Shown here piece by piece: positions 2,682-20,579 of a stretch of DNA of 24,000 nt. The notes under the pieces are model-generated. The model worked only from the letters and a program-made list of their open reading frames with translations. It was not told the origin of the DNA and ran no database searches. Each line of letters starts with the position of its first letter. Within the stretch, counting starts at the first letter, position 1. This DNA comes from an uncultured Acidimicrobiales bacterium. Its GTDB lineage: Bacteria > Actinomycetota > Acidimicrobiia > Acidimicrobiales > RAAP-2. Location: positions 151,367-175,366 of the forward strand of contig CAWDXZ010000007.1 in NCBI GenBank assembly GCA_963806455.1, given 5' to 3'. The translations under genes and the position numbers were made by a program.

Positions 2682-2987
2682 GTGTCGAACGTGACCCCGT
2701 CAGAGATGCACCACCACGAGCACGCCGTTGAGGTAATCGTACGGAGCCCCGCCGGGACCCCGCACCCCTTCAGCTTCGGGTTCGACGAGCTTGGGGCGCA
2801 GGCCGCCGCCACGGCGATCGCCTACTTCGTGGGCAAGCACGAGATCGAGCCCGGGGACTACGCCCTCGAGCTCGTCCGTGACGGGGTTGCCACCCCGATC
2901 GCCGACACGGCACGGCTCAGCGACTACGACCTGCACAACGGTGACGAGCTGCGGCTCATCCCCGAGCAGCCCCAGGTCGACGGGTGA
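2682..2987 (+). CDS. ubiquitin-like (beta-grasp type) protein with free C-terminal Gly, BilA-like
   Basis: 101-aa ORF. GTG 2682 lies 5 nt after GGAGG (2672-2676). The protein ends ...LRLIPEQPQVDG-stop. Its stop overlaps the next start (GTGA, 2984-2987). It is the first gene of a Ubl-E2-JAB-E1 array. The fold assignment is inferred from size, terminal Gly and context, not from a search. Confidence 0.68.
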   Translation: MSNVTPSEMHHHEHAVEVIVRSPAGTPHPFSFGFDELGAQAAATAIAYFVGKHEIEPGDYALELVRDGVATPIADTARLSDYDLHNGDELRLIPEQPQVDG

Positions 2988-3400
2988 GCCTGCATCCGGC
3001 CCTACTGGTCGAGATGCTGGAAGAGGAGGTGTCGGTCGCCCGGGTTCGCCTGGGCGACCGCATCGCCGGGCTCGACATCGTCGGCACCGACATCATCTGC
3101 ACGCTGGAGGAGACCAGCGTGGGAACGGTATACCTGCGCTTCGCTGCGGCGGACTACGACGCGGAACCCATGAGCTTCGCCGTCGTCACCGAGAGCGGCG
3201 AGATCGCCGAGACAGCGAAGTGGCCAGGCCAGCTGTTCCACTCCATCCATCCCTCGCTCGAGCGCGCCATGGCGTGCGTCGCAGGGGACCTACGAGTATC
3301 ACAGCTTCCCGGGCACACGGCCGACCGCTGGGACGCCCATCGGCGCACGCTGCGCTTCCCCCATCTTCTGGACCACATCGTCACCAAGGCAGGCAAGTGA
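2984..3400 (+). CDS. E2-like ubiquitin-conjugating enzyme homologue (Prok-E2 / BilB-like)
   Basis: 138-aa ORF coupled to both neighbours. It contains FHSIHP(89-90)SLERAMAC(98)VAG. The HP-to-Cys spacing resembles the E2 HPN...Cys active site, with the Cys codon TGC at 3275-3277. It sits between the Ubl and JAB genes. Confidence 0.66.
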   Translation: MSLHPALLVEMLEEEVSVARVRLGDRIAGLDIVGTDIICTLEETSVGTVYLRFAAADYDAEPMSFAVVTESGEIAETAKWPGQLFHSIHPSLERAMACVAGDLRVSQLPGHTADRWDAHRRTLRFPHLLDHIVTKAGK

Positions 3401-3847
3401 TGCTCACCATCCCCATCGTCCATCCTCGTCGAGGCCCGTACGTTCTTCGAGGACCGCGGCGCGCTCGGGTGCGAAGGCACCGCCATGATCGCCGGCACCG
3501 ACGGCGTCGCCACCAAGCTCGTCATCCCCGAGCAGCACGCCAACCCCGTTCCCTATTGCTCGGTCGAGGTGACCCGGCAGGGCAAGAGCGAGCTCGCACT
3601 CGCCCTCGGCCCCGACGACCGCTACGTGGCGCGCATCCACAGCCACCCCGCCCTGGCCTTCCACAGCCCGACCGACGACGCCAACCCGGCCATCACCTAC
3701 CCCGGCGCACTGTCCATCGTCGTCCCCTTCTTCGGGCTCGGCCTTCGACGCGGTCTCGACGCCTGCGCCGTGCTAGTTCGCCGCGACCGGCGGTGGCTCG
3801 AGGTCCCCGCCGGCCCGGACCGCAACGACTTGGTGGTGGCACGGTGA
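3400..3847 (+). CDS. JAB/MPN (JAMM) isopeptidase, BilC-like; 5' end frame-disrupted
   Basis: ORF 3485-3847 carries the JAMM-like HSHPALAFHSPTDD, with H-x-H...S-x-x-D spacing one residue shorter than canonical. The same frame upstream reads ...ILVEARTFFEDRGALGCEGTAMIAG, which would supply the JAMM Glu, but has no canonical start. The coupled ATG at 3400 (TGATG with the E2 stop) is in another frame (MLTIPIV...). One +1 shift at about 3403-3425 is therefore needed. The stop overlaps the E1 start (GTGA 3844-3847). Confidence 0.72.
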
Positions 3848-5403
3848 GCGACCCGCGCCTTTCCTTCGGGCTCGGCGTCGTCATCGGCGCCGGCGACGCT
3901 GTTCTCGAAGCCCTCGACGGTCTCCGCCCAGTGATCCGGGTTGGAGTTGATGTCGACGCCCGTGCTGCGACGGCTGTGGCGGCGCTCTACTCGATGCTGC
4001 TCCGGCTCTTCCCCCACACCGTCCTCGAAGGCGACGCCACCCTCGGCGCCAATCCCTGGGGTGCGACCAGGCTCGGCGAACTCGTGGGCGTGCTCGCTGC
4101 GGCGCGGCCGACTCCGAGCCGGGGGCCCGACCGGGACTTCATCGTCGGCGTTGGCGCCGTCGTCGGTGGCGCCCAGCTGTGGATGGGTGGGGACGACTGG
4201 ACGGCGGACATCGGCCCGAGCCCCCGGGCCATCCGCGGCGGCCGGTTCGGCCTAGGTCTCCAGGCCGCGGCCGCCATGGTTGCGTCGGAGATCGCCAAGG
4301 TGGCGCTGGGTCCCCTCGGGATGCGCCACTACTCATCTCGGTGACGGCGTGGTCTGGAACCTGGCCGACTACCGCCGACGCCCGGCCCCCGACATGCCGC
4401 AGCACCGGACCGCTGCGCTGGACGTCGTGTTCTTCGGCACCGGCTCGGTGGGGTCGAGCGCGGCGGGAGTCCTCACGTGCATCGACGAACTGCACCGGGC
4501 ACGCAGTCCTCGTGGACGGCGACACCTTCGACCCGACGCGCAACACCTACCGCTACCCGACCTCCCTCGGCACGGAGACGGGACCAAAGGCCAGCTGGGT
4601 CAAGGACCTGCTCGTCGCCCGGGGCTGGACTGCCGACGATGTCGTCGGGTCGGCCTCGGACTGGGTGCGCTCGCAGCCCGCCCCGGGGTTCACCGGCATC
4701 GTCGTGTCCTCAGTGGACCGGCCCGACAGTCGCCTGCAGGTGGCCGACGCCATGGCAGCCACGACCCTGAGCGTTGGCGTCGACGGCCTGGCTCTGCACA
4801 TCCAGCGCGAGCACGTCTTCGACGACTTCGCCTGCCCCTACTGCGACTTCGTCTCCCTGGAGCCGCCCATGGGCCGGATCGACTCGTTGGCCGAGCTGCT
4901 CAAGCTCCCCCAGCCCCGAGTGGCACAGCTCCTGGTCGACGGCGACATGCTCACCGCGGCCAGACATCGCCATGGTGGTCGACGCCGGCAGGATCCGCGC
5001 CGAGCGCTCCGAAGAGCTGGTCGGCCGGCGCATCGAAGACCTCATCCGGCGGACGTACGCCGAGATCTCGGTACCCGACGTGGCCGGAGCTCCAACCGCG
5101 GTCAGCGCCGCATACGTCTCGTGGATGGGCGGCATCCTGGTCGCGGCCGAACTGACCAAGGCGGCCATTGGGCTGTCGATGGTGGACCGCCGCCTCGACC
5201 TGGATCTCTCGGGTATCCCGCTCGAGGGAGTTCGGCGTCGGCTTCGTGACACGAGCGGAAACTGCATCTGCGCTTCGCCGCAGCGGTGGCGTTGGGCGAC
5301 AAGACTGTACGGAGAGCGATGGAACTCGACGACCAACAGCGGGCGGGACTCGCGGCCGGAACCCCAGACTGGGCCGCCATCTACATCGGCTGCCGGACGG
5401 TGA
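3844..5403 (+). pseudogene. E1-like (ThiF/MoeB/UBA family) adenylating enzyme, BilD-like; three frame breaks
   Basis: The protein reads across frames 1>2>3>1, with breaks at about 4320-4345, 4490-4500 and 4960. The N-terminal roughly 165 aa is a degenerate Rossmann-like region. GTGSVG nucleotide loop lies at 4436-4453, then LVDGDTFDPTRNTYRY, CPYC (4833-4844), AVSAAYVSWMGGILVAAELTKA and CIC (5263-5271). The 3' end at 5403 is uncertain and overlaps the sigma gene start. Confidence 0.75.
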
Positions 5404-5932
5404 TGTGGCGGGCAGCCTGGCAGGTGCTCGGGCCCGATCACCACTCCACCTTGGGCACTTCCGCGGATGCGATCGTTCACGACACCATGGCGGAGCTGAT
5501 GGAGAAGTCCAACGAACGCGGCATCTCGGCCATCCCACCCGACGTGAAGAGCATCGATGCGTTCTTGTGGACGGCCACCCGGCGGCGCGCCCTGCCGCGT
5601 GGTCGAGCGCTCCCGACGCAAAGAGATGAAGCCGTTCCCCGAGCCCGGGGATCCGGGTGAACCTGCGGAGTTGAAGACGACCATCGAAGCATTTGAGGAC
5701 GCCCTGATCCTTGAGCAACTCGACTCCCATCTCCACAAGCTCACCGACAACGAGCGTCGAGCGTTCATCGGGTACTACAAGCAGGGCCGAACCTACGACG
5801 ACATCGGTGCTGAGCTCGGATGTCACTGACAGGGGGGCCTCCAAGCTGTGCGCGAGAGCCGTCCGTAAGCTGACCGCTGCGGCGGGCATCGAGGTGCACG
5901 AGGACCTGGAGGAGGAAGGAACAGATGGCTGA
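5286..5932 (+). pseudogene. sigma-70 family (ECF-like) RNA polymerase sigma factor; two frame breaks
   Basis: A region-2-like segment (...DAFLWTATRRRAL) in frame 3 continues as VVERSRRKE... in frame 1. This leads to the region-4 HTH LTDNERRAFIGYYKQGRTYDDIGAELG and then, in frame 2, VTDRGASKLCARAVRKL. Breaks lie at about 5585-5600 and 5818-5826. The start is either GTG 5286 or ATG 5319. The stop overlaps the next ATG (ATGGCTGA, 5925-5932). Confidence 0.62.
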
Positions 5933-6608
5933 CGACATCGTCGAAGGCCAGATCACAGAGCTCATCGAGTCCTACGTCGCCCACCTTGACGGAGCGGGAC
6001 CGGCACCTTCTCTCGACGGGCTCGATGCCGCCACTCAGCGTGAGGCCCGCAAAGCCTTTCGTGCCGTTGATGCCGCGTGGCGTAGCGACATCGAGATCCC
6101 TCCGCTTGAGGAGGATCCAGTCGCCCTCGCCTTGGGCTTCGTGCCCCGTCGCGACGCCGGAATCGTTCGTCGTCATCTCCGGCAAGTTGGTGAAGAGGGC
6201 GCGCCAGGGGCAGCGGGCTCAAGACGAGCGACGTTGCAAACCTCCTGAAGTCGGTGGGGCTGCCGGCCGCAGACCAGAAGTGGCTGGGCCGGCTCGAACG
6301 GGCACCCGTGCAAGAGGTCGCACTTGACGTCGCCACGGGACTCGCCAAGGTGCTGGGTGTCTCGCCCGACGCCATTCGCTGGCGCAGGACAAGGACGTCG
6401 GCCCATTCGCGGAGTGGCTGTATTCGGACGAGTTCGACGCAGCTGTTCGCCGCGTGGGTTGACGAACAAGCAGGTCGAGACGCTTCCCGTGGACCTCGCA
6501 CCCCGAGCACGGAGGGAGCTCCTCGCTGCGGCCCGCCGGAGCGACGGTGATGGAGGACCGGCCCTATGGGTGCAGATGCTCAGGTCCGTTCTCGACGAGT
6601 TGTCCTGA
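5925..6608 (+). pseudogene. XRE-family helix-turn-helix protein; about four frame breaks
   Basis: The HTH core reads ISGKLVKRAR..GSGLKTSDVANLLKSVGLPAADQKWLGRLERAPVQEVALDVATGLAKVLGVSPDAI. The full protein can only be read by switching frames 3>1>2>1>3 at about 6150-6170, 6208-6212, 6370-6376 and 6452-6458. It lies immediately upstream of an ImmA-type peptidase, the classic HTH/ImmA pairing. Confidence 0.55.
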
Positions 6609-6611
6609 GCC

Positions 6612-7654
6612 ATGCCCCGGTCTCTGCGCTCCGAGCCAACGAGCCCGAGGCGATGGGCTGATCGGCTGGTCGGTGCCCTCGACGCCGGGGTGCGTGATCG
6701 CCATCGCCAACGATCCGCGGCGCGCCATCGAGGAACACCTCGGTCTGCGGGTGGTCGAACAGGGGACCCTTGGCGAGCGCGGCAATGGCGGGTGGTGCGA
6801 TGGGCTGTCGATCCTCGACGAGGGCGTCATCTTCTTTGCCCCGACAGTGAACTCGAAGAGGGCGAACTTCACCCTCTGCCACGAAGTGGCGCACTACCTC
6901 GTCGAAGAGCACACGGACTCCGAGACGTTGGATTGGGTGGCAGATCAGGCGGATCCCGACCAGGTCATCGAGCACGTCTGCGACCTTGTCGCCTCCCGGC
7001 TATTGGTGCCCGACGCCATGGTTGCCGCCGTTCTCGAAGACGTCGGCCCCGGCGGCCCGGCGGTGGCCGAGCTGTTCGCCCAATCCGAGGCGTCCCGTGA
7101 AGTATGCGCGATCGCTCTGGCCGATCGACTGGGTTGCGATGGCTTCATCGCACTGATCAACCGGGACGAGGATGTCGTCACATTCGCCTCGCGTGCCCAC
7201 GAGGGCCGGCCCTATCCACCGCGCCGGGCTGCTGTGCCGTCAGGGCATCCGCTGCTGCGACTCTCAGATCGGCGAGTCGGCCACGGCCGAGGCGTGGTGG
7301 CCCTGGCCGGACGGTTCCCTACAGCCCTTCTACCAGAGCGCGCTGCGTGACGGTCGTTGGGTCTATGCCGTCCTCGCCGCCCACGACCTGTGGCAGGTGA
7401 CGCAGTTTCATCCCGCTCCCGCAGAGCGACCCACGGTGACGGTGCCGGAGGGAAGGCTTACATGTCCTTGTGGATACAGGGGCGCAGCCCGGGGGTTCCC
7501 GTGTTCGACCTGTCACAAGATCACATGTCCGGAGTGCCACGAGTGCGACTGCGACCGCAAGGAGCGCATCGCCCGGAAGCCGTGCAAGCGATGCACTGTG
7601 AGCGTCCCCGTGGCCCAGCTTGACGAGGACGGGTACTGCACGGGGTGCCAATAA
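6612..7654 (+). pseudogene. ImmA/IrrE-family (DUF955) zinc metallopeptidase with C-terminal Cys-rich zinc-ribbon-like domain; two frame breaks
   Basis: HEXXH motif in FTLCHEVAHYLVEEH. ATG 6612 lies 3 nt after the HTH gene stop. Frame 3>1 at about 6683-6690 (a GGGG run) and frame 1>2 somewhere in 7200-7265. The last 65 aa (7457-7654) contain 12 Cys arranged as six C-x(1-2)-C pairs. Confidence 0.7.
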
Positions 7655-8419
7655 CGCATCAAGGCGGACTGCTCTACTTGCGCAACGGATGGCACAGTCG
7701 ATCAAGTTGAGCTTGGGTGTAGAAAGCTGTCCCAATGAATCGATTTCAGGGGTCACAGTGTGGTGCATGATCCGGCCAAGGACCCGTCGGTCGCGGTGCG
7801 ATCCGCGATCGGAAGCAACTGAAGCATGGACTATCTTCGCCATGGCCTCTGCCGGTTCCGTCGGCTCGTACTCGGGGTATACCAGACCTTGGAGCACGTC
7901 TAGTGCCCGGATGTCGATTCCCTTTTCGATGATCGGGATGATAGGAACCCGTGGTCCTTCGCTATGCCGATCTCACGTACACCAAGTTCGTGCTCGTCGA
8001 CGTGATGAGCACGACAAACGCCTTACTCCGGTAAGTCGCCGCTCGGGCCTTTTCGGCGAGGAGCACTCCAGGCTGGGGGTTCCTTGGCGAGGTAGACGGT
8101 GATGCCAAGCACCTCAATCTGACGGGCTACCAGCTAGATGTGAGGCTTGTCGGTAGTTGAATGGCTGAAAATGCCTCGAGATGTGGCACGAGCGGCACCT
8201 GGCCCGGAGTGTTGCTGAACGTCAGCGGGGGCCACTTCTCAGGGGGCGTGACCAAGTGTGCGCGGTCATCGTTCAATTGTACGAGAAGGGTGTGCCGTGA
8301 GGCCGCTCAACGGTTTCGAGTGCCTTACGATCATTTTCGGCGCCCCTGTTGGTTCGAGAATTCCATCCGGAGCGACGACCACCCACCTTCTAGTGGAATG
8401 AACGAGCGACGGCTGACAG

Positions 8420-9760
8420 CTACACGCGCACGATGCGTTCGAGATCCTCGAGTTGTCGCCAGAGCTCGACGTGGGCCAGCCATCCGGCGAACTGGTCGTC
8501 CTCCGATCCGACCGGTCGTTCCTCTGTGTCGTGCTTGTGAGATGCGAGTGCGTCCCCCACCCCATCTCGCGAGACGAGGATGACTCCGAGTTGGTGGCGA
8601 CTGGTCATGACGCTGAGCCTGCCGGGCGCGAGCTCGAACATCGTGGGCTCCGGGATACCGGACAGTGTGTGCTTGGCCACCATGATCGGGCGTTGCAGGC
8701 CCTGCCAGACCTCGGCGGTGTTGGTCACCGTGTCGGGTCCAATGCCCAATCGACGGAGCCGCGACCGGACCTGCTCGTTGCTGGCAACGTGGGGATCGAC
8801 GTATCCCACATCCGCATCCGATAGCTGGCGGACACCGACCCAATCGGGTAACCGCTCGAGCATCCGCGCGATCAGGTGAGCCGAGAGTTCAGCCAGCTCG
8901 GGGTCGGACTCCGACAAGTCCCGGACCGAAGGGGGGAGCACGACGGCCACCATGCTGGCCCCCGCGGCAATGAGGTCGAGGACGGGATCGACTGGGTCAC
9001 CCATGCCCACGAGGCCGAAGGACAGACGGCGCTCCTCCGGATCCGGACCCGAGCGGAACGGTAGGTTCGGGTAGAAGGCGGGTTGGACAAGATTGACAGT
9101 GTCCTGCGGGAACCGCCATGTGGCCGGGAGGATCTCGTGCGGCAGGCCTGGGTGGCGGCGCAGCATTTCCCGGGGTGCGGCCCAATGGACCTTGTGGCGG
9201 GCAGCCTCGTAGCGTGCGAGGTCGCCACGGACCAGTGGACGCAACTGCCCAGGGTCCCCGACGAGCAAGCTCCGTGGTGCGAGGTGCAACAGCAGCATCA
9301 CGTCCTTGTAGGGCACCTGGTAGGCCTCGTCGCAGACGAGTAGGTCGAACTCGCCCTCCTCGAGCTGGGGCACCATTATCGAGGCCTTGCGCACCGTCAT
9401 TACGGTGATGGACCGATCACCGGGAAGATCGGCTGCCCGGGTGCCGAGCGTGATCTGCGGAGCACCGACAAACTCGGGTGGTGGTGGTCGCTCGGCCGAG
9501 TGGATGAGGGTGATGGGCACGGGGTAATCCCTGGCAAGTCGTCGGACGAGGTCGTAGACCTGCTCGTTCTGGAACGCAACGACGAGCGCCCTCGAACCTC
9601 CATCGGCGGCAACGGCGGCAACCATTTCCACCAAGTCGGTCTTCCCGGCGCCTGGGGGGCTGTCAACCACAACGGCATGGTGGTTCTCATGCAGCACGAG
9701 TTCGAGGATGCGGCGGCGAGCGTCCTCGTCCGCCTGGGCGATGGTCGGGGCGTCGATCAT
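8420..9760 (-). CDS. SF1 helicase-like ATPase (DNA2/Upf1- or RecD-like core, about 446 aa)
   Basis: Intact 446-aa ORF. Walker A SPPGAGKT (GAGKT at 9638-9652), Walker B/motif II LLVCDEAYQ, motif III VGDPGQL, then WRFP, QGLQRP and TSRH near the C-terminus. The ATG overlaps the upstream stop (ATGA, 9757-9760). It is the last gene of a four-gene operon. Confidence 0.85.
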   Translation of the reverse strand: MIDAPTIAQADEDARRRILELVLHENHHAVVVDSPPGAGKTDLVEMVAAVAADGGSRALVVAFQNEQVYDLVRRLARDYPVPITLIHSAERPPPPEFVGAPQITLGTRAADLPGDRSITVMTVRKASIMVPQLEEGEFDLLVCDEAYQVPYKDVMLLLHLAPRSLLVGDPGQLRPLVRGDLARYEAARHKVHWAAPREMLRRHPGLPHEILPATWRFPQDTVNLVQPAFYPNLPFRSGPDPEERRLSFGLVGMGDPVDPVLDLIAAGASMVAVVLPPSVRDLSESDPELAELSAHLIARMLERLPDWVGVRQLSDADVGYVDPHVASNEQVRSRLRRLGIGPDTVTNTAEVWQGLQRPIMVAKHTLSGIPEPTMFELAPGRLSVMTSRHQLGVILVSRDGVGDALASHKHDTEERPVGSEDDQFAGWLAHVELWRQLEDLERIVRV

Positions 9761-11169
9761 GGGCGTCGAAGCCTCCGTGCGCGGGCTAGGAGGTCGTCGG
9801 CAGGTGGTGGTACAGCCGGTTGCGGCGGCAGATCGTCCGCGAAGACGAGCGGCGTGTTGGCCGTCTGCATGGTTCGTCGGGCTCTGCCCATCTGCACACT
9901 GAAGTCAATGGGTGAGCTGTCGGTGAGCTCCAGGTCCATCCCCAACCTCCAACGATCGACGGTGCGGACCCCCGTCGAGACGTCGAAGGTCAAGAGCCGG
10001 TCGTCGCCGTCCTCGTTCTCGTCGATCAGGCGCAGATCGACGCTGTCCGTGATGGCGTGGAGCCGAGTGCCACGGCGGAGACGGAGCACTGGCTGGTCGG
10101 TACGGACGACCACGCTGCAGGGTCGGAACTTGGGCCGCCTGCCCCAGGTCACCGACTCGAGCGTGCCGGCGACGATCCGACCCTTGGAGCGGGCTACGCG
10201 ACGGGCGAAGCCGTCACCTCGGACGACGACATCCTCGGCCACATCGGCCGCATGCTCATTCTCGTCGACCATCCGGGCGAGAGCGGGCGCCCGGCTGGGG
10301 GGCGCCACCGGATTGGTGATCCGGTAGGCGAGCCGCTCCTTGCTCGCGGCGACGAGGGTCTCGATGCCAGGGAGTGGGGTGAGCGGCAGATCGAAGATGG
10401 CCCGGCGACACGCCATTAGCAGGTCCCACTCCGCTCGCGCCCCGCCACGCAGGAGCTCCTCGATCTCGGCCCGCGCTCGGGCAGCGGCCGCGTCGCGGCC
10501 TTTTGCGGTCCGCCGGAGTGCCTCGACGCGGTCGTCCACTTCACGCACGAGGACCCCACTGGCCGGCACGAGAGCACGCGCCTGGGCGGTCTCGAGGGCC
10601 GTACGGCCGTCGTCGGGCTCGACCCAGGCCAAGAGCGCCCCGAGGTGACCGTCCTCGACAGGTGACTGACCCGTGACCACGTGCTCACGCAGCACGTCGG
10701 CGCCCACCGCGACGGCTTGTTGGCCCTCGAAGCGAGCCTCCGTGGCGATGGTGATGCAGTGCCGACCCAGGGTACGCAGCTCCTCGGAGGCCTCACGGTT
10801 GGTCCGATAGCGGTGACCGAAGACCTCCATCAGGCTGAGGGCGCTCCCGTGGGGCAACCACACCCGGGGGAGTTCGTCGGCCGTGACCTGGTCGCGTAGG
10901 TACTGATCGAGCGAGACGGCCATGCGCTCGAGGCCCTCGACGTCGCGCGACAGCGGGTTCCAGCGCACCACCACGTCCGGCTCCTCACCGATGACACCGA
11001 AGGCGACAGACTGGAGGACTTCCTCGCTCACCATCTTGATCGGCGCGATCCCGAAAGCACGCGGGGGATCGTCGGCCAACCGGCGCGTCTCGACGACGGG
11101 CACGGCGCGGTCCTCTCGTCGGGCCACGAGGCGGGCCACCACGGTGGCGGTCTGGAGGGCCGAGGTCAT
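9757..11169 (-). CDS. hypothetical protein (470 aa), third gene of the nuclease-helicase cassette
   Basis: Intact ORF with ATGA overlaps at both ends (11166-11169 and 9757-9760). Codon usage matches its neighbours. I could recognise no catalytic or nucleotide-binding motif. It has a central Ala/Arg-rich helical-looking stretch (RRTAKGRDAAAARARAEIEELLRGG). Confidence 0.75.
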   Translation of the reverse strand: MTSALQTATVVARLVARREDRAVPVVETRRLADDPPRAFGIAPIKMVSEEVLQSVAFGVIGEEPDVVVRWNPLSRDVEGLERMAVSLDQYLRDQVTADELPRVWLPHGSALSLMEVFGHRYRTNREASEELRTLGRHCITIATEARFEGQQAVAVGADVLREHVVTGQSPVEDGHLGALLAWVEPDDGRTALETAQARALVPASGVLVREVDDRVEALRRTAKGRDAAAARARAEIEELLRGGARAEWDLLMACRRAIFDLPLTPLPGIETLVAASKERLAYRITNPVAPPSRAPALARMVDENEHAADVAEDVVVRGDGFARRVARSKGRIVAGTLESVTWGRRPKFRPCSVVVRTDQPVLRLRRGTRLHAITDSVDLRLIDENEDGDDRLLTFDVSTGVRTVDRWRLGMDLELTDSSPIDFSVQMGRARRTMQTANTPLVFADDLPPQPAVPPPADDLLARARRLRRP

Positions 11170-12236
11170 GCCAGTCGCCGCCGGAGTTCGACGGGCTGGA
11201 TCCCGACCAGGGGCGCCGCTTCCAACAGGGAACCGAGCAGGGCCTCCTCGTCATCGGTGGCCGGCTCGACCTCGCCCACGACCAGGGCTCGGACGTAGTC
11301 GAGATCCATTCCAGAGAGGAGCCGGCTGGCGGTGTCGCCGAGGAGGGCGGGCGTCTGGCCCGAGCGCTCGAAGCAGTGGGCGGCCATGACGCAGGACTGG
11401 TGGCAACCCTCGGTGGGGTGGATGGCCAGGTCGTCGACCAGGTTGGCCAGGTTCCCGCCCCCTTCGCGCTCGAGTTCGTCGAGGCGCTGGCGGACCCGAT
11501 CGATGACCTCGAGTGCTCGTCGGAGCTCCAGGATGGCACCGTCGAGGGCCTCCTCAGGCGGGTCGGCGGCCCGCAGGCCGAACGGGGTTGCCATCACGAA
11601 GATGGCCGTGTTCGAGACCCGGTCGCCAAGCCCGACCAACGTCGCCTCGGCTCGGAAGGCCAGGATCTGGGCGGCGGCCTGCCGGCGGGTCAGATCGAGG
11701 TCGGCCGGGTCGGCGATGTTGTCGCGGACGATGAAGGACTTCTCCTCACCGGGCTTGAAGAAGCCGGTCCGAGGATCGAGGACGGCGAAATCCGGGCTGA
11801 CGTACTCGAAGCAGCCCGGCGAGCCGGTCGGGAGGCACAGTTGCGGCTGGATCACGATGTCGGGCACCGCCCGACCGTGCGCCAGGTCGTCGAGGACCCG
11901 CCGGGTCCTGGTCAGCCGGACGGCACGCATGGTGTTGACCGGCCCCGGCACCTCGTCGGCGAAGTTACGAACCACCATCGTGTCGGGATCGCGCCCGACC
12001 AGCGGGCCGATGACGCGACGCAGCTCGGCGGCGTTGTTCTCGTGCAGGTGGGATTCGAACTTCGAGCCGCGACGGCGGGCGGCCACCCGTTCGCCGTATT
12101 CCTTCGGGTACTCCTCACCGGTGACGGCCCGGTAGAAATCGGGCTCGCGTACCCGTCGGACGGCCATGGCGGCCTGCAGGTCGCATTCGGGGTTCTTCGA
12201 GACCCTCACCAGGCCGCGGGTTCCTGAGAGGGTCAC
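11166..12236 (-). CDS. Cas4/RecB-like PD-(D/E)XK nuclease with putative 4-Cys (Fe-S) cluster
   Basis: GTG at 12236 overlaps the upstream stop (GTGA, 12233-12236), giving a 356-aa product. The longer 413-aa ORF in the track is an Arg/Pro-rich 5' extension. Nuclease motifs are GSKFE, SPD(149)FAVLD, GE(164)EK(166)SF (11739-11747) and RRQAAAQILAF (QxxxY-like). Cys18 plus C278-x3-C282-x5-C288 (11373-11405) mimic the Cas4/AddB cluster layout. Confidence 0.7.
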   Translation of the reverse strand: MTLSGTRGLVRVSKNPECDLQAAMAVRRVREPDFYRAVTGEEYPKEYGERVAARRRGSKFESHLHENNAAELRRVIGPLVGRDPDTMVVRNFADEVPGPVNTMRAVRLTRTRRVLDDLAHGRAVPDIVIQPQLCLPTGSPGCFEYVSPDFAVLDPRTGFFKPGEEKSFIVRDNIADPADLDLTRRQAAAQILAFRAEATLVGLGDRVSNTAIFVMATPFGLRAADPPEEALDGAILELRRALEVIDRVRQRLDELEREGGGNLANLVDDLAIHPTEGCHQSCVMAAHCFERSGQTPALLGDTASRLLSGMDLDYVRALVVGEVEPATDDEEALLGSLLEAAPLVGIQPVELRRRLA

Positions 12237-13003
12237 GACCCCGTCGCCTTTTCGCCCGGGGGGAGCAGGATCAGCGTCGAATCGGGGACGCCGAAGAGTC
12301 GACCGTGGTCGTCGAGACGTGCTGAGAGCTGGTCGGCGGCGACCTCGCGGTTGGTGCGATCCGTGGGCAGGAGCTCGTCGAGGAGCATCTCGGCAGCCAG
12401 GCGCCAAGTCTCGAGATCGAACTTGCCACGGCGCACCTCGAGGCCCGGCACGTCGCGGGCGTGGTCGGCGGCGAGGATGGCCATCATCTCGGGATCGACG
12501 ACGCGCTCATTGCCGCCGGCGATCCGACACAGGGCTGCCGTCATGTGGAGGTGCTGCACCCTCCCGGTCGTCGGCGCCACGACCCGCTCGGAGAGTGGCC
12601 AATCAGAACGCCCCCACAGGCGTTTGATCGCCTCCCCCCGGTCAGCCACCAGACCGTGACAAAGCCATACCGGCCGATGCCGGCCCTTGCCGAAAGCCGA
12701 AGCCTCGTCGTTGCTGAGAGATCCGAAACGGGTGGAGCTCAACTTGCGGCCGTAACGGGCTTGGGCGAAGAGCGCGAGCTCCCGCGAGAAGGCCATGGTC
12801 CCGAGGTCGGCGAGACTGTCGAGTAGGAGGTTCCGAACGGGAACCTGCCGCTTGGTTCCTCTGGCTGGCTCGTTCGGGCCTGCTGGAGCACTCGCCCTTC
12901 CGGACCCCGAGGCAAGGCGGGCGTCGATCTCCGCCAATTGTTGCGCCAGGCGGGCCCTCTCCCTCTCGAGCTCGACTTTCTCTTCATTGGCGAACTTGTC
13001 CAT
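12233..13003 (-). CDS. hypothetical protein (256 aa), first gene of the nuclease-helicase cassette
   Basis: Intact ORF starting at ATG 13003 with no Shine-Dalgarno sequence. The N-terminus looks coiled-coil (EEKVELERERARLAQQLAEIDARL), followed by a Gly/Pro/Ala linker and a roughly 190-aa domain with no motif I recognise. Its stop is coupled to the nuclease start. Confidence 0.7.
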   Translation of the reverse strand: MDKFANEEKVELERERARLAQQLAEIDARLASGSGRASAPAGPNEPARGTKRQVPVRNLLLDSLADLGTMAFSRELALFAQARYGRKLSSTRFGSLSNDEASAFGKGRHRPVWLCHGLVADRGEAIKRLWGRSDWPLSERVVAPTTGRVQHLHMTAALCRIAGGNERVVDPEMMAILAADHARDVPGLEVRRGKFDLETWRLAAEMLLDELLPTDRTNREVAADQLSARLDDHGRLFGVPDSTLILLPPGEKATGS

Positions 13004-13183: not shown

Positions 13184-14337
13184 ATGGGAACGGGCTGGAG
13201 AGTGGCGGGGCTATTCGCGGGTATCGGCGGGATCGAGCTCGGACTGGAGCGAGCAGGGATGCATACCAAGGTGCTCTGCGAGCGCTGGGAGCCGGCCCGT
13301 GCCGTCCTCGAACACAGGTTCCCCGGCGTCCGACTGACCAACGACGTTCGTGAGCTGAAGAAGCTCCCAGCCGTGGATCTCGTGGCCGCCGGCTTCCGTG
13401 TACGGATCTCTCGCAAGCCGGACAGATGAAAGGCATCACCGGAGCGGCATCCGGACTGGTCGGAGAGGTCTTCCGGCTACTCGAGGGCCGACGAGTGCCG
13501 TGGGTCCTCCTGGAGAACGTTCGCAACATGCTGGTTCTCGATGGTGGCAGAGCGATGAGCTTCCTCGTCTCGGAGCTGGAGGCGCTCGGCTATCGCTGGG
13601 CGTACCGTCTAGTCGACTCGCGCTTCACGGGGGTCCCGCAGCGCAGGCAACGGGTGATCCTCGTTGCGACGACCGAAGGCGACCCCCGAGAAGTGCTCTT
13701 CGCCGACGACGCCGGGGATCCTGGCGACTCATGGTTCGAGTCGGACGTCCACGGCTTCTACTGGACGGAGGGCCTCAAGGGTCTGGGTTGGGCTCGTGAC
13801 GCGGTCCCCACGCTGAAGGGGGGATCGACGATCGGGATCCCCTCGCCACCGGCCATCTGGAACCCCCACGCACCCGCTGGCCAGCGGATCATCGTCCCTT
13901 CGGTGACTGAGGCCGAGCAGATGCAGGGCTTCGAGGTGGGATGGACGGCGCCATCGGACTTGGTCTCGGGCCGCAAAGGGACGCGTTGGAAGCTCGTGGG
14001 GAATGCGGTGACCGTCGGGGTCTCCGAATGGGTCGGGGATCGACTTCGGTCACCGGGTCGTTTCGAGGGACAGGCCCGACCGCTCGATGGATCCGATCCG
14101 TGGCCGAAGGCGGCATGGGGCGTCAACGGCGAACGGTGGGCGGTCGAGGTGTCCATGTGGCCGACCAACGAGCCGTATCGCCATCTCGGAGACGTCGTCG
14201 ACCTGGACGACGTGGTGCCACTGTCCCTGCGGGCCGCTGCGGGGTTCTACGAGCGGGCTATGCGCAGCTCACTGCGGTTCGACGAGCGATTCCTGGACGA
14301 CGTCGCCTCCCACATCGACGTCGTGACGGCGGCCTGA
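13184..14337 (+). pseudogene. DNA (cytosine-5)-methyltransferase; single frame break inside the catalytic PC motif
   Basis: Motif I LFAGIGGIELGL. In frame 2 the protein reads VAAGF and then runs off. Frame 1 reads PCTDLSQAG..., then ENV, QRRQRV and GNAVTVGV. GGCTTCCGTGT at 13391-13401 lacks one C of the expected GFPC codons, so the break is at about 13396. The start is ATG 13184 or GTG 13139. Confidence 0.85.
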
Positions 14338-14790
14338 GGACCTCGATCGGACAGCCGCCTCCACCCGTTCGGCAGCAGCACTCGGCATTTCGTGTTCCCA
14401 GACCCGGACGACCAGCCACCCCGCCGTATCCAATTCAATGTCGGTGTCCCGGTCCCGCCGCACGTTCGCCTCGAGCTTGTCGATCCACCAGGCCCGGTTG
14501 GCCTTGGGGACGGTCCCGTGTTCGGGGCACCGGTGCCAGAAACAGCCGTCGACGAAGACGGCCACCCTGGATCGAGGGAATGCAATGTCGACCCGGCGTC
14601 GCCGCCCGGTGATCCCGATGTCCACCCGGTAACGCAGCCCCCTCGCCCACAGCTCGGAGCGAAGAGCCCGTTCGGGCAATGTGTCCCGGCGCCGCTGGGT
14701 CTTCATCCTGCGTTCGGTATCGGGACTGGAGGCGCTCGGGCGACTGCGCTGCCTCGCTTCTCGTGATCCCATCCCTCGGTCGCGTTCCAT
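14269..14790 (-). CDS. vsr: very-short-patch repair endonuclease
   Basis: DTLPERALRSELWARGLRYR...VDIAFPRSRVAVFVDGCFWHRCPEHG...NRAWWIDKLEANVRRDRD...GWLVVRVWEHE matches the Vsr family by eye. I place the start at ATG 14790 because the ORF's upstream extension looks spurious. Its 3' end overlaps the convergent C5-MTase gene by 69 nt. Confidence 0.85.
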   Translation of the reverse strand: MERDRGMGSREARQRSRPSASSPDTERRMKTQRRRDTLPERALRSELWARGLRYRVDIGITGRRRRVDIAFPRSRVAVFVDGCFWHRCPEHGTVPKANRAWWIDKLEANVRRDRDTDIELDTAGWLVVRVWEHEMPSAAAERVEAAVRSRSSGRRHDVDVGGDVVQESLVEPQ

Positions 14791-14880
14791 CCTTTCGTAG
14801 TCTCTCGCGGTGGAGGTCCTTCGCAGGAGGAACGACGAGGTCGTGGCCAGCGCTAACGTCTCCAACGACTGGGTGGCCGC

Positions 14881-15741
14881 ATGATGGACGGTCCCCGGGT
14901 TCTCTGCAGGACGATGACGGTGCCCTCCATCACTGACGAGCACGGGAACTCATGGCAGTACCACTCCCGCAGTGACCGGCACTCGAAGGTGGCGTGCTGG
15001 GCGACATTGTTCGACCTCCTCCAGCAGTCGGCACTGCTCCGTCGTCATGTCGAGAACGGCACGGTCGCCTTCGGCGTGAACCACGGGTTCACCGACTTCC
15101 GAACCCGCCGAAAGAAGAAGCTCGACTTGGTGATCCACCGACCTGGCACCCAGATCGGGATCAAGAGCGGTCGGTCTTTCGGCGAGCTGGGTCAGGGTCT
15201 CTCCGTCGAGCTCCACAGAGACGAACAAGCGCGCTTGGACTCACTTCCCGATCTCGTGGAAGCGCCAGTGGGTTCGGTCCTGATGGCACTTGAGGCGAAG
15301 GCTTGTATGACCAAGCATCGTGGGTCGGGCCCTCGTCTCTACGACGAACTCAACAGTTCTCACCTGACCGTGCACGGGGCGGCCGACCAGGCCATAGCGG
15401 TCGCCTTCGTCATGATCAACGAAGCCGACTCCTTCGTGAGCCCGGACTCCAATCGACGATCACTCGGAGCCGACGATCCACCGCCCAAGGTCACTCTGCT
15501 GCGACAGCCAAAGGCAACCGAGTTCGTCGTCGCAAAGGTTGGCGAGCTGCCCACCAGGACGAGGCCAGGACACGAAGGCTACGACGCGATCGGGATCGTC
15601 GTGGTCGAGTGTCGTAACGACGGGAGTGAAATCACCGTCGTCACGGGTCCTCCCGCACCGGCGCCCAACGACCTGTTCTCCTACGAATCGATGATCCGGC
15701 GGATCGTCCATCAGTACGACTTCCTCAACTCAAATCTCTAG
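14881..15741 (+). CDS. putative type II restriction endonuclease (PD-(D/E)XK)
   Basis: Intact 286-aa ORF divergent from vsr. It has a textbook PD-x13-EAK motif: SLPD(124)LVEAPVGSVLMALE(138)AK(140) at 15247-15300. It is an orphan sequence next to the C5-MTase and Vsr. The start is ATG 14881 or 14914. The function is inferred from motif and context only. Confidence 0.55.
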   Translation: MMDGPRVLCRTMTVPSITDEHGNSWQYHSRSDRHSKVACWATLFDLLQQSALLRRHVENGTVAFGVNHGFTDFRTRRKKKLDLVIHRPGTQIGIKSGRSFGELGQGLSVELHRDEQARLDSLPDLVEAPVGSVLMALEAKACMTKHRGSGPRLYDELNSSHLTVHGAADQAIAVAFVMINEADSFVSPDSNRRSLGADDPPPKVTLLRQPKATEFVVAKVGELPTRTRPGHEGYDAIGIVVVECRNDGSEITVVTGPPAPAPNDLFSYESMIRRIVHQYDFLNSNL

Positions 15742-16003
15742 TCCTGGCGTTGACGCGCTCGTTCCTCCTTCTCCTCGAACTGAAAGAGGGCTGGCTCGGG
15801 CCGACTGCGGCCTGCGCCTTCGTCTAGCTGCCCCGTTGGGTCATTAGGGCGGCTACGGCGAGACTTCGACCACCTCGGCCGCCATCGGCATCCTCAGCCT
15901 GAGCCTTCCGCCATGTTGGTTTGAGCCCTGTGGATGCCGGCAGCTGATCCAAGCATCAGGATTTCGTGATCGTCCAGTTGCTGATCTCAGTCCGAGCGTC
16001 CTT

Positions 16004-16855
16004 TCATTGCGCTTCAATAGGTTGGTTAGCAATCCCAAGAATCACCTCTGGCTGTGTATGGACACCATGAGCGACAACCGTCGATACCCTGGAACTCGCT
16101 GACATTCCCGGTTTGGCGAATGTCAACGTGACGGCGTTGGAACTGTCTGGGCAGACTGACGCAAGTTGCTGACCGAGATCCGTCGCGAATGAGATCTCTG
16201 CGGCACATCCGTATGCGGCAGGGAGTGTGCTTGGCCACAACCATGTGTGTGTAAGACGCATCGCCTGAAGCCAAGCCGCGGTCTCCGCTTCAGTGAGCTC
16301 CACAACGGCCTGAGAAATCTGCGACATTCCGGTTGGATGCTTGACCTGCCTGACCGTCGTGATCGTCCCACTGGGTGTGAAGATCAGCTGGAAGTCACCG
16401 TTGAAGAGGTCGTATCTCTGGGTGCCGGTGATCACTACATGGTTCTTGAGGAGCGTGGCGGCATACGCCTCGCGATTGCCATCCACCAGGAAGATCTCAG
16501 CCTCGCCACTGCTGGTCGTGATCGCCAGACTCATGGCACGCCCGGACTCCGAGCCGACATCGTAAGCCACTGTCTGTCCATTTGGCTCCACTACGACTTC
16601 TGGTGGTCCCCAACATCCGGCGAAGCCTCCGCCCACCCCGGTACCGGGGCCCACCCATACCCTCACAAACCCGTCATAGATCTTGCCCTCAGTTCCGTAA
16701 CCGGGCTGCTGTGACACTTCTTTGCCACAGATCGCGTAGTACCCGCTCGAGCCAAGTGATTCGGGAGAGGGATTGGGAGCGAGTTGCGGGAACATGACGA
16801 TGGGCGCGGAGGCCGAATGTACCGAAGGCGCCGGTTCTGTGAATACAGCTGTCAC
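16004..16855 (-). CDS. hypothetical protein (283 aa)
   Basis: Intact ORF in an AT-richer segment. GTG 16855 overlaps the stop of the upstream membrane-protein gene (GTGA 16852-16855). No signal peptide or recognisable motif. Confidence 0.6.
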   Translation of the reverse strand: MTAVFTEPAPSVHSASAPIVMFPQLAPNPSPESLGSSGYYAICGKEVSQQPGYGTEGKIYDGFVRVWVGPGTGVGGGFAGCWGPPEVVVEPNGQTVAYDVGSESGRAMSLAITTSSGEAEIFLVDGNREAYAATLLKNHVVITGTQRYDLFNGDFQLIFTPSGTITTVRQVKHPTGMSQISQAVVELTEAETAAWLQAMRLTHTWLWPSTLPAAYGCAAEISFATDLGQQLASVCPDSSNAVTLTFAKPGMSASSRVSTVVAHGVHTQPEVILGIANQPIEAQ

Positions 16856-17460
16856 GCTGAGACTGTCGCGATCCCACTGCTAATGATTGGAAGGACACAG
16901 GATACGGACGCGATTGCTGCGATCGTTGCCTTGGCAGCAACCGTCAGGAAGGGCCATCTCCTCAAGTCAGACCTCTTACAGAGGTAGATGAAGAAGCGCT
17001 CTTGGAGCGGGACGATGTCGTTCCCGGTTAGGGTTTCTACTCTCTTCCAGTTCAAGAATATGAACCCGCCGAGCGACATCAAGCTGAGGACGAATGTACC
17101 GGTTAGGGCTACAAGCCGGAAAAGACCTGTCGGGTAGGGGAGGAGGAGCAGGTCGACAGTGACCAGACCCACGATGGTCACAGTCCCCTCGAGAATGACC
17201 CACTTGCAGAGGTCGGGACACTCCTTCAGTTGGTGAGTGAACCAGCTCATTGTGGCGCGCGACACCGTGCACAAAAGCATCATCACGGCGGAAGCGCAGG
17301 CGAGAGCGAAGAAGATGCTGTAGCCACCTGTGAGGTGGCTGCCTTGTAGGGATTTGTCTCTGAGAGCAAGCCAAGGTCCCAATGCGATGAGGACCGCGGC
17401 GACAACGAAGAAGAGAGGAATACCTTGTCGAATGCGACGAACTCGATAACCGATCTGCAC
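16852..17460 (-). CDS. multi-pass membrane protein (202 aa), possibly 5'-extended
   Basis: It has several long hydrophobic segments (IPLFFVVAAVLIALGPWLAL, YSIFFALACASAVMMLLC, TVTIVGLVTVDLLLL, FRLVALTGTFVLSLMSLGGFIFL). Upstream, another frame (to about 17700) encodes two more TM helices (ILIVAGGGVAGLLVA, AFALVMTFAAVWVVLLL). One frame shift near 17535 would join them through an acidic linker. Confidence 0.62.
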   Translation of the reverse strand: MQIGYRVRRIRQGIPLFFVVAAVLIALGPWLALRDKSLQGSHLTGGYSIFFALACASAVMMLLCTVSRATMSWFTHQLKECPDLCKWVILEGTVTIVGLVTVDLLLLPYPTGLFRLVALTGTFVLSLMSLGGFIFLNWKRVETLTGNDIVPLQERFFIYLCKRSDLRRWPFLTVAAKATIAAIASVSCVLPIISSGIATVSA

Positions 17461-17957
17461 TCGAACCGGGGCACCGAACGTGGGTTCTGCCTCGTCGGGG
17501 CCCTCCGACTCGCCATCGGGCGGGGATTTCGGTTCGACAGCAACAGCACTACCCAGACTGCGGCGAAGGTCATCACCAGAGCGAAGGCGCCTTGGCCGTA
17601 TTTACCCTGGGCAACGAGGAGGCCCGCCACACCCCCGCCCGCCACAATCAGGATCTGGCCGACAATCGGCCCTGGCGCCGGTCTGGACCGGCGTCGGTGG
17701 GAATGCGCAGGTCTGCGGTCACGCCCTCTCACCCAGGCCTCCCTCGGTCCACCGCTCCGGCTCGCGTGCGAGTTAGGTTGACCTGCGCCCCTCGTTAGCG
17801 TGTTGCGTGTATCTCCTCTGGCCGGCGGACGGTGGTTCTGTCAGACGCTAGGCCCATTACTCAGCGACCACAACTGGTTTGTCAGTATTGATCACTTATG
17901 CTGACTGTGAAATCATGAGCAATCCATGTGACCGAATGATCACGAAGGAGGTGCGCG

Positions 17958-18831: not shown

Positions 18832-18995
18832 CGTCGCTGCCTCGAAAATGGGTCTACAATCCGCAAGACACCAAGCGAGATACTGTGCGGTGCTTACCGC
18901 TTCGATCGGCGCGACAGTAGGACAGAGGACGGCGAAGAAACTGAGGAAGCATCAGTTATCCGCCAGTTTGGTGAACGGCTTCAACGCGATGCCGC

Positions 18996-20182: not shown

Positions 20183-20193
20183 GGAGGCTCCTC

Positions 20194-20465
20194 CTACGGA
20201 CCGGCCGGCGGACGGCGATGCCGAGCGAGCGGGTGGACCGGCGGGGCTCGACCCGGCAGGACTCGATGAAGGCGTCGAGATCGGCGGCCGAGAAGCGCAG
20301 GAGCCGGCCGACCTTGAAGTAGGGGACCCGGCGCTCGGTCACCAGGCGCCGCATGTAGCGCTCGGTGACGTTCAGGTAGCTGGCCGCTTCCGTGCAGGGT
20401 GAGCGGGCGTCCGTGCGTTGGCGCGGGCTCGTCCGCCGGCTGCCGGTGGCGTCGGTCTGCGGCAC
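20194..20465 (-). CDS. xis: excisionase / MerR-like HTH_17 DNA-binding protein; 3' end uncertain
   Basis: GTG 20465 lies 10 nt after GAGGAGG. The HTH reads TEAASYLNVTERYMRRLVTERRVPYFKVGRLLRFSAADLDAFIES. It lies directly upstream of int. The frame as given never stops before int. A stop (TAG, 20194-20196) is reached only after a one-base shift in the C-run near 20240. Confidence 0.6.
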
Positions 20466-20579
20466 TGCCTGGTCACCTCCTCGGGCGCTCGATCCCCGTC
20501 CGGGGTGCACACCACACCTCCACGTTCGGCCCGGATCAAGTCGACCCGGCGGACCGTCGGCCCCTTCCCTCGGATCCCT

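Follow-up and report, generated by a model that had tools for sequence, protein, structure and literature searches.

A probable Type II Bil-like conjugation cassette of actinobacterial mobile elements with a tyrosine in the E1 catalytic-cysteine column

We analysed a stretch of 24,000 nucleotides, hereafter called the window, from an uncultured bacterium of the Acidimicrobiales (contig CAWDXZ010000007.1, positions 151,367 to 175,366 of the forward strand). Beside a tRNA-Gly gene it carries a group of genes that likely represents a copy of a conserved seven-gene mobile-element cassette of the Actinomycetota, the first four genes of which appear to encode a ubiquitin-like protein (Ubl) conjugation pathway related to the Type II bacterial ISG15-like (Bil) systems. 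Judged by its sequence, the locus is a Type II Bil relative that fails one defining feature, namely the catalytic cysteine of the E1 enzyme. We could not find a published description of the seven-gene actinobacterial architecture. The copy in the window is unusable as written, and its interest lies in the family that it reveals.

The conceptually repaired E1 protein was used as query and yielded 111 homologues. Gene order was compared across the contigs carrying E1 homologues together with 26 loci from species-representative genomes. The genes follow each other in one direction in the order Ubl (about 101 amino acids, aa), E2 (138 aa), JAB peptidase (about 149 aa), E1 (about 518 aa), a sigma-like factor (175-200 aa), a protein of about 226 aa and a protein of about 346 aa. 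With few exceptions, this seven-gene order is found in about 30 independent loci, nearly all of them from Actinomycetota, which shows that the arrangement is not due to chance. The hosts comprise Acidimicrobiia, Amycolatopsis, Saccharothrix, Actinosynnema, Pedococcus, Allobranchiibius and Nocardioides as well as an Acidothermaceae genome, the Rhodococcus opacus plasmid pHG203 and one Chloroflexi metagenome-assembled genome (MAG). In four loci (L009, L011, L020 and L028) the last two genes are replaced by a single longer protein of 335-388 aa, which has only the N-terminal and helix-turn-helix (HTH) part in common with the 226-aa protein, and an IrrE-like protease is missing. The surroundings of the cassette point to mobile elements: type IV secretion system (T4SS), relaxase and Tad genes lie near it in L003 and L004, tRNA genes are found within a few kb in four loci, and in L019 an integrase directly adjoins tRNA-Ala and is accompanied by a primase. 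Further neighbours are a NACHT-type NTPase (L013), a SIR2_2 protein (L030), a C5 methylase (L025) and a transposase (L007), and in L037 an integrase is located upstream and a Type I restriction system downstream of the cassette.

A preliminary description of this DNA, made from its letters, had proposed an operon with the order BilA-BilB-BilC-BilD beside tRNA-Gly. Profiles built from intact homologues bear this out, as they match BilD, BilC and BilB (E-values are given with each gene below). The translational couplings (GTGA at 2984-2987, TGATG at 3398-3402 and GTGA at 3844-3847) and the motifs on which the proposal had been based (QVDG-stop, H89-P90/C98, GCEG, HSHPALAFHSPTDD, GTGSVG, CPYC and CIC) were all located at the positions given. 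Order and couplings of the four co-directional genes thus stand, but not their integrity as open reading frames (ORFs): only the Ubl gene is clean, the E2 gene is scrambled, and the JAB and E1 genes need one and three frame fixes, respectively. The downstream regulators, which had been regarded as extra, are present but form a conserved part of the seven-gene cassette.

The E1 gene (3844-5403, + strand) encodes, once repaired, a protein of 518 aa with an inactive adenylation domain (IAD), an active adenylation domain (AAD) and a helical insertion. Its motifs, the GTGSVG nucleotide loop (4436-4453), CPYC (4833-4844) and CIC (5263-5271), lie in three different frames, and the gene is broken near 4335, 4495 and 4960. 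After repair it aligns end to end with an intact 518-aa homologue (P0001) from an Acidimicrobiales MAG, to which the E1 of the window is 93% identical (tblastn). The E1 family profile matches BilD of Ensifer aridi (8tyz_A) with E=5e-35 over residues 27-497 in one stretch; the next matches start with MccB at 5e-4. The GxGSVGS loop is conserved in the family, and R236, the equivalent of BilD R246, as well as D291 are invariant. Among 45 family members the only invariant cysteines are C330/C333 (CPYC) and C473/C475 (CxC), which align with C340, C343, C491 and C493 of the structural Zn site of BilD (PMC10557695). By this correspondence, CPYC and CIC are the four predicted structural Zn ligands and not catalytic residues.

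The catalytic Cys417 of BilD aligns to a near-invariant Tyr-Ala pair of the E1 family (HMMER posterior at least 0.9). A profile search of the whole library returned 1,758 E1 relatives, 204 of them at an E-value of 1e-30 or better, and the column was evaluated in the BilD fragment and in those of the best 150 hits that were full-length (109 proteins). It is occupied by Tyr in 98 of 110 sequences and by Cys in 10 of 110, followed by Ala, Gly or Ser, as determined with hmmalign and independently with MAFFT L-INS-i. In the window, the corresponding Tyr codon is TAC at 5056-5058. No conserved Cys was detected in the helical insertion, and most family members have no Cys there at all. The catalytic Cys in the CYS domain of E1 by which Bil systems are recognised is therefore absent, the column being Tyr in the family of the window. 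Tyr-type E1 operons also occur outside the actinobacterial clade (L032, L034 and L036), where they have the order Ubl-E2-JAB-E1 and an E2 that keeps the Cys...His motif. A Cys-type relative (L035) has Pfam DUF2604, Y4jH-like, Prok-JAB and BilD_N, the canonical markers of Type II Bil. Both characterised Bil E1 enzymes use Cys, namely C385 in Collimonas, which forms a dithiothreitol (DTT)-sensitive adduct (10.1101/2023.09.04.556158), and C417 in E. aridi (PMC10557695), and a catalytic E1 tyrosine has been demonstrated for Bub alone (BubCD Y370; PMC11601596). A full-text literature search returned no description of a Tyr-type Bil E1; supplementary operon tables were outside its scope. We tentatively propose, at somewhat less than even confidence, that these proteins form a large undescribed Bil-like branch, including the actinobacterial clade, in which the Ubl is activated via a Tyr of the mobile E1 domain and passed as an oxyester to the E2 Cys, and that in Actinomycetota, on conjugative and integrative elements, the pathway is in addition controlled by a dedicated ECF sigma factor and a proteolytic switch of the DdrO/IrrE type.

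The Ubl gene (2682-2987, + strand) is the sole cassette gene that has no insertion or deletion (indel) in the window. ORF, profile and model agree on a 101-aa protein with a single beta-grasp domain and the C-terminus PQVDG-stop. This ending is kept in 20 of 21 homologues, the remaining one having PQSDG. Five of the 21 contain 4-7 extra residues after the Gly, as has been reported for the Ubls of Bil systems, the tails of which are removed by the JAB peptidase. The Ubl family profile matches single ubiquitin chains in the Protein Data Bank (PDB) over the whole fold with E-values from 2e-5 to 1e-3. An AF2 model of the window's own Ubl (predicted local distance difference test, pLDDT, 77 overall and 80-87 in the core) shows the topology beta-beta-alpha-beta-beta-alpha-beta, which is the order found in ubiquitin, and its top PDB matches are ubiquitin variants, SUMO, ISG15 and Hub1, all with a probability of 1.0. 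The beta-grasp fold that the preliminary description had expected for the 101-aa protein was thus recovered. The single-domain Ubl, which it had named as a trait of this version, is not distinguishing, as 78% of Type II Bil operons (PMC11601603) encode such a Ubl and the solved BilA of E. aridi (PMC10557695) is one. The structure predictions were based on shallow alignments, since a word-indexed homologue search gave 11 Ubl and 14 E2 relatives, and the model confidence is moderate.

Variation at the Ubl C-terminus was also observed among the relatives. In an Acidimicrobiales MAG (L020, 8843-9535), Ubl and E2 are encoded in one ORF (...CEPQVDG-MALHPVL...), which could resemble the Type I Bub Ubl-E2 fusion that needs JAB cleavage, or could reflect a lost stop codon. 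The Ubls of the Tyr-type E1 operons L032, L034 and L036 end in P-Q-(V)-D-G, SPDG or QPIDA, whereas GVGG is the Ubl C-terminus in L035, the single Cys-type operon looked at. In this small set of operons, the residue that precedes the terminal Gly (Asp or Gly) may vary together with the E1 nucleophile.

The second gene (2984-3400, + strand) encodes a 138-aa E2 in whose ORF H89-P90 and C98 are present and for which Cys98 and His111 are the predicted active-site residues. Both C98 and H111 are invariant in the two E2 alignments of 21 and 14 homologues; for Cys98, the preliminary description had made this conservation a test of its proposal. The close subfamily has the motif C-x5-E-x-H-x4-H, the spacing of which equals that of C138/E144/H146/H151 in BilB (Chambers et al.; PMC10557695). 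The only PDB match of the E2 profile below 0.1 is E2(BilB) (8tyz_C, E=0.002), and this alignment covers the Cys-His motif (PFaCvqGtyeYyahpsHladrWDahR against PFLCMAGVREYHDNPAHSGDPWLLHR). The AlphaFold model of an intact homologue has the same chain as top PDB fold, with a probability of 0.96, and UbcH5c appears lower among the fold matches. In the window, the frame shifts at 3280 (+1) and 3310 (-1) turn QGTYEYHSFPG into AGDLRVSQLPG right after Cys98, so that the ORF has CVAGDLRVSQLPGH where every homologue has CVQGTYEYHSFPGH. This scramble removes the Glu and the first His of C-x5-E-x-H-x4-H.

The JAB/JAMM peptidase gene (3400-3847, + strand; about 148 aa once repaired) has the catalytic Glu in GCEG (3467-3478) and the metal motif HSHPALAFHSPTDD at 3638-3679. 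Its family profile matches DUB(BilC) (8tyx_B) over the full length with E=1.2e-16, and the residues of the JAMM site, E25, H80, H82, S89 and D92, are invariant among the homologues. One extra base at 3416 puts the ATG at 3400 out of frame with the gene body, and the first in-frame start (3485) falls downstream of the catalytic Glu.

The searches with hidden Markov models (HMMs) that had been suggested for these genes gave a divided result. With the window proteins themselves, direct scans of Pfam, PADLOC and NCBIfam yielded no match for Ubl or E2, the JAB protein scored 21.7 bits against Prok-JAB (cutoff 25), the sole Pfam match, and the E1 of the window reached 1.8e-6 with PADLOC BilD, for which the best family member reached 5e-15; this model covers only the N-terminal two thirds of the family's E1, and weakly. 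Since direct matches were weak or absent, profiles built from homologues were needed, and these were significant. A standard Bil detector probably misses the locus.

The three remaining genes code for putative regulators. Gene 5 (5319-5932, + strand), which overlaps the 3' end of the E1 gene and is broken at 5595, 5665, 5683 and 5820, encodes a predicted sigma-70 family factor of the extracytoplasmic function (ECF) type. All five intact homologues tested exceeded the curated cutoff of TIGR02937 (sigma70-ECF) with 48-72 bits against 42.9, and gene 5 homologues also match Sigma70_r4. Gene 6 (5925-6608, + strand; broken at 6159, 6212, 6375, 6446 and 6479) encodes an XRE-family protein of about 226 aa with a central HTH plus extra N- and C-terminal domains. 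The HTH_31 match is weak, and the gene 6 profile matches the XRE regulators 9sf2 (E=7e-4) and 7t5u (E=0.1) and, weakly, SinR and 434 repressor. We regard this protein as the candidate repressor and protease substrate. Gene 7 (6612-7654, + strand; broken at 6697 and 7270) encodes an IrrE/CapP-like M78 metallopeptidase of about 346 aa with the motif HEVAH. The profile matches IrrE (3dte, 8slm) with E about 1e-20 over the peptidase and the following domain and CapP (7t5t) with 6e-4. Peptidase_M78 is matched above cutoff, H90, E91 and H94 of HExxH are invariant, and a C-terminal zinc-ribbon tail contains about 12 conserved Cys. In genes 6 and 7, an M78 HExxH protease hence adjoins an XRE HTH protein, which is the arrangement of CapH/CapP pairs. 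Genes 5-7 probably make expression stress- or infection-inducible. CapH/CapP pairs occur beside 15% of Type II Bil operons, where no sigma factor accompanies them and where, with a single exception, they lie upstream in divergent orientation (PMC10557695).

Upstream of the Ubl gene, a non-coding leader of the cassette (2444-2681, + strand) is conserved at the DNA level and ends in a ribosome-binding site (GGAAGGAGG). DNA homology with L037 begins at window position 2444, and the counterpart in L037 is 6930-7190. A block TTCTTAGTTCGG...CATCTCTATGGGACCGC is common to the window and L002 (about 1740-1860) and is partly present in L003 and L007. The leader is conserved in spite of different upstream neighbours, a tRNA in the window and an integrase in L037. 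As read from this conservation, the block TTCTTAGTTCGG-N18-CGTCACATCTCTATGGGACCGC is a candidate promoter/operator at which the sigma factor or the repressor of the cassette would act.

In a four-way DNA alignment of the window with L037, L002 and L001, we identified 17 indels of 1-2 bp that are private to the window and break six of the seven genes. Fifteen are insertions (3280, 3416, 4335, 4495, 4960, 5595, 5665 with two bases, 5683, 5820, 6159, 6212, 6446, 6479, 6697 and 7270) and two are deletions (3310 and 6375). An obvious sequence motif or homopolymer context shared by these sites was looked for and not found. Verification of the frames thus showed them to be broken, while their repair by alignment to intact homologues was feasible. 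As written, the window encodes no working JAB peptidase or E1, and if the indels are real its cassette is dead. The indels are, however, probably an assembly artefact, which we consider likelier than decay. After their removal, about 4 kb of coding sequence in the window genes contain no internal stop codon, and the ratio of nonsynonymous to synonymous substitution rates (dN/dS) of the repaired genes against L001 is 0.29, close to the 0.24 of two intact relatives. Together these values indicate that the indels are not matched by the neutral substitutions that an old pseudogene would show. The usual indel bias of bacteria is towards deletions, and the excess of 15 insertions over two deletions runs opposite to it. 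Moreover, L037, a 68.7-kb contig (ENA contig_1688), has a different private set of about ten indels, each of 1-2 bp, which affect the Ubl, JAB, sigma and HTH genes of its cassette (6930-12153), whereas the short-read contigs L001 (SPAdes NODE), L002 (JGI) and L003 (k141) contain none. The L037 indels suggest that such cassettes are systematically mis-assembled, and hence under-annotated, in this kind of assembly.

It is nevertheless conceivable, although we regard it as rather unlikely, that the locus is a genuinely decayed pseudo-operon in a dying integrated element, in which the indels are real and the genes do nothing. Beyond the six broken cassette genes, the integrase (18996-20182), the methylases (20955-22326) and the 5' end of a C5-methylase gene (before 13426) look broken too, and the public record of the sequence has the same broken ORFs. 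The breaks are also patchy, as the block at 8420-12407 and the flanking chromosomal genes are intact, which is not expected of uniform sequencing error and suits gene-specific decay. Decay would, on the other hand, have had to introduce 17 indels with almost no neutral substitutions and no stop codon, mostly in the direction opposite to the bacterial bias, and to leave a different set of private indels in a second long contig of the element and none in the short-read contigs. Apart from this patchiness, a number of observations weigh against the reading of the locus as a Bil-related conjugation cassette with a Tyr in its E1. The Glu and the first His of the CEHH motif vary in the Pseudonocardiales branch of the E2 family, and the E2 fold match is modest, with a template-modelling (TM) score of 0.48 at a pLDDT of 73. 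Direct matches to library HMMs are weak (BilC 4e-7, BilD 1.8e-6) or, for BilA, BilB, DUF2604 and Y4jH-like, absent. Furthermore, the divergent E1 members P0101, P0103 and P0104 have neither Tyr nor Cys at the site, which weakens the case for Tyr as an obligatory nucleophile.

The scheme below, which covers catalysis, regulation, target and biological role of the intact cassette, is inferred from sequence throughout. The XRE protein of gene 6 would repress the operon from the conserved leader (2444-2681). Damage or infection would activate the IrrE/CapP-like protease, the repressor would be cleaved, and the ECF sigma factor would then amplify transcription. The Ubl would be ready-made, ending in Gly101, and in the tailed relatives the JAB peptidase would expose the Gly. 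E1, the adenylation residues of which are conserved, would adenylate Gly101 with ATP. Tyr404 on the mobile insertion might take over the Ubl as an oxyester, or merely position it, and pass it to Cys98 of E2. As an alternative to the Tyr oxyester, which has been shown for the Bub E1, the E2 Cys could attack the adenylate directly. Cys98, with His111 beside it, would then attach the Ubl to lysines of the target in a reaction that proceeds without an E3. The target may be a protein of a phage or of an element, and the JAB peptidase could remove the Ubl from conjugates and in this way reverse off-target tagging. By analogy, the cassette may serve to defend the host or the element against phages or competing elements.

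Instead of being directed against phages, the cassette might help to regulate or maintain conjugative or integrative elements, with stress-induced Ubl tagging of element or host proteins controlling, for instance, transfer, excision or entry exclusion. We consider this explanation unlikely. The cassette is always accompanied by an ECF sigma factor, an XRE protein and an IrrE-like protease of its own, none of which is needed by characterised Bil systems, it adjoins T4SS, relaxase and Tad genes or integrases or is located on a plasmid, and the Bub operons, which also have an E1 Tyr, have so far provided no phage protection (PMC11601596). Against this, the nearest characterised relatives, Type I and Type II Bil, are anti-phage systems (10.1101/2023.09.04.556158, PMC10557695), regulators of the CapH/CapP type are typical of defence systems (PMC10557695, PMC11601596), and NACHT, SIR2_2 and restriction-modification genes are found in the neighbourhood. 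The mobile context itself does not discriminate, because defence systems are common cargo of mobile elements.

Two other biochemical assignments seem very improbable. One is a ThiS/MoaD-ThiF/MoeB-type sulfur-carrier pathway that includes a JAB peptidase, comparable to the CysO-Mec-MoeZ pathway for cysteine in actinobacteria; it would share a beta-grasp protein ending in Gly, a Cys-less adenylating enzyme and a JAB peptidase with the cassette. The parts list agrees with the operon classes of ThiS/MoaD, E1-like and JAB proteins in rows 4c and 4d of Table 1 in PMC1779556, and MoeB/ThiF-type enzymes normally lack the E1 Cys. An E2-like protein with invariant Cys and His is, however, always present here, the E1 has the two domains and helical insertion of BilD and is neither a ThiF homodimer nor a rhodanese fusion, and the Ubl profile matches ubiquitin itself. 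There is also no linked gene for a cysteine synthase, MoaE, ThiG or a rhodanese, and the context is that of mobile elements rather than biosynthetic operons. Assignment to the Bub (6E/DUF6527) operons instead of to a Bil relative is just as improbable. It would account for the catalytic position of the E1, which holds a tyrosine like that of BubCD (Y370; PMC11601596), and for the single ORF of Ubl and E2 in L020, which resembles BubAB. Yet the cassette lacks a DUF6527/BubE gene, E1 and JAB are separate proteins, E2 and E1 are unfused, and E2 has Cys, not Ser. The E1 consists of the IAD, AAD and insertion of BilD and not of a homodimeric UBA5/ThiF-like domain, and the best PDB matches of E1, E2 and JAB are all Bil proteins. 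A locus of the CBASS Cap2/Cap3 type was ruled out, as there is neither a fused E1-E2 nor a cyclase.

The island in which the cassette is embedded follows a tRNA-Gly (GCC) gene (2211-2284, + strand; ARAGORN). In comparison with related cassettes, the shared sequence begins approximately 160 nt 3' of the end of this tRNA. A second attachment site (attR), in the form of a copy of the tRNA-Gly 3' end, was sought across the window and not found. The G+C content falls from approximately 71% to 58-69% over roughly 2.3-19 kb of the window. Besides the cassette, the island contains a block of three genes headed by a helicase gene, a C5 methylase accompanied by Vsr, genes for a tyrosine integrase and an excisionase-like protein, and a pair of methylase genes. 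The block at 8420-12407 (- strand) comprises three translationally coupled genes, all of which are intact and, unlike their neighbours, free of frame breaks. The first encodes a 446-aa SF1-type helicase or NTPase (AAA_30, AAA_11, ResIII) with weak local PADLOC matches to Mokosh MkoA and MkoC, and for the other two proteins, of 470 aa and 413 aa, no family match was obtained. This block is a candidate for an uncharacterised defence or element-maintenance module. It is followed by a restriction-modification-like cluster (13426-15741). Here, a Type II C5 cytosine methylase (from 13426) aligns only from profile position 85, so that the 5' end of the gene is either lacking or out of frame. The strand opposite to the methylase encodes a Vsr mismatch endonuclease (14269-14943), and a 286-aa ORF at 14881-15741, which has no family match, could encode the nuclease of the cluster.

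The region from 15500 to 19000 has the lowest G+C content of the window (57-60% compared to about 71% in the flanks) and codes for a 202-aa multi-pass membrane protein and a 283-aa protein, both of which have no family matches. It is probably separately acquired cargo. Further downstream, the tyrosine integrase (18996-20182, - strand) is split across three overlapping frames, and an excisionase-like HTH ORF is located within 19941-20771. The two DNA methylase genes (20955-21755 and 21415-22326) are tandem paralogues, are both frame-broken and contain a 158-nt direct repeat with 73% identity. This far end of the island (18996-22326) looks as damaged as the Bil-like cassette. Beside the methylase genes, at 22656-22698, the non-coding sequence contains three overlapping 11-nt-spaced repeats (ACTACCCCGCG / AATACCCCACA / ACTACCCCGCG), which could be an iteron or a recombinase binding array.

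The field of bacterial Ubl conjugation is young, and three groups have been characterised, namely Type I Bil, Type II Bil and Bub. Transfer via Tyr has been reported for Bub alone and was described as distinct from all other pathways. If the Tyr majority among BilD-like E1 proteins with a Cys-bearing E2 holds, activation by Tyr would be widespread and would include mixed oxyester-to-thioester relays, a hybrid chemistry between the all-thioester pathways of Bil and eukaryotes and the all-oxyester pathway of Bub. The cassette's own circuit of sigma factor, repressor and protease may furthermore serve as a model for how such pathways are switched on. According to the searchable literature, no Bil-like system has so far been studied in Actinomycetota. 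The clade would escape the HMMs now in use for defence systems, and broken frames in long contigs can conceal the cassette.

Among the known systems, the cassette is most similar to Type II BilABCD (formerly CEHH/6C) of Ensifer aridi TW10 (PDB 8TYZ, 8TZ0, 8TYX; PMC10557695). The gene order Ubl-E2-JAB-E1 is common to both, as are a single beta-grasp Ubl with a conserved Gly and sometimes a short tail, an E2 with CEHH-spaced Cys...His and no E3, a BilC-like JAB peptidase, and an E1 composed of inactive and active adenylation domains with a helical insertion and a four-Cys Zn site. Type II Bil operons are also occasionally linked to an XRE and M78 regulator pair. In contrast to them, the E1 column of Cys417 is Tyr here, the Ubl ends in DG and not in GG, and the proteins are too diverged to be recognised by Pfam DUF2604, Y4jH-like, PADLOC BilA or BilB. 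The regulators are downstream and co-directional and include an ECF sigma factor, whereas those of Type II Bil are upstream and divergent, and the protease is nearer to IrrE and has a Cys-rich zinc-ribbon tail. The hosts are Actinomycetota, while those of Type II Bil are mainly Rhizobiaceae; in the survey of Iyer et al. (2006), class 6C was confined to alpha-proteobacteria (PMC1779556).

Type I BilABCD of Collimonas sp. OK412 (10.1101/2023.09.04.556158) has the same four functions in the same order, a Ubl with C-terminal Gly and an E2 Cys, and its anti-phage activity via Ubl conjugation to a phage tail protein has been proven (10.1101/2023.09.04.556158). It differs in its Ubl of two beta-grasp domains, in the DTT-sensitive thioester at E1 Cys385 and in having no linked sigma, XRE or protease genes. 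The Bub (6E/DUF6527) operons of Citrobacter and E. coli (PMC11601596) share with the cassette an E1 without catalytic Cys, the invariant Tyr of which is required for transfer in Bub, as well as a frequent CapH/CapP linkage and a location in tRNA-inserted mobile elements. Their fusions (Ubl-E2, JAB-E1 or E2-E1), Ser-based E2, homodimeric minimal E1 and BubE serine protease have no counterpart here. Genes 6 and 7, finally, resemble the Deinococcus pair IrrE/DdrO and the CapP/CapH pair known from CBASS and further defence systems (3DTE, 8SLM, 7T5T, 7T5U), in that an M78 HExxH protease with a following domain is combined with an XRE HTH protein. In those systems, DNA damage leads to cleavage of the repressor by the protease. 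The pair described here is distinguished from them by its location at the 3' end of the operon that it presumably controls, by the added ECF sigma factor, by the large extra N- and C-terminal domains of the HTH protein and by the Cys-rich protease tail of about 75 residues.

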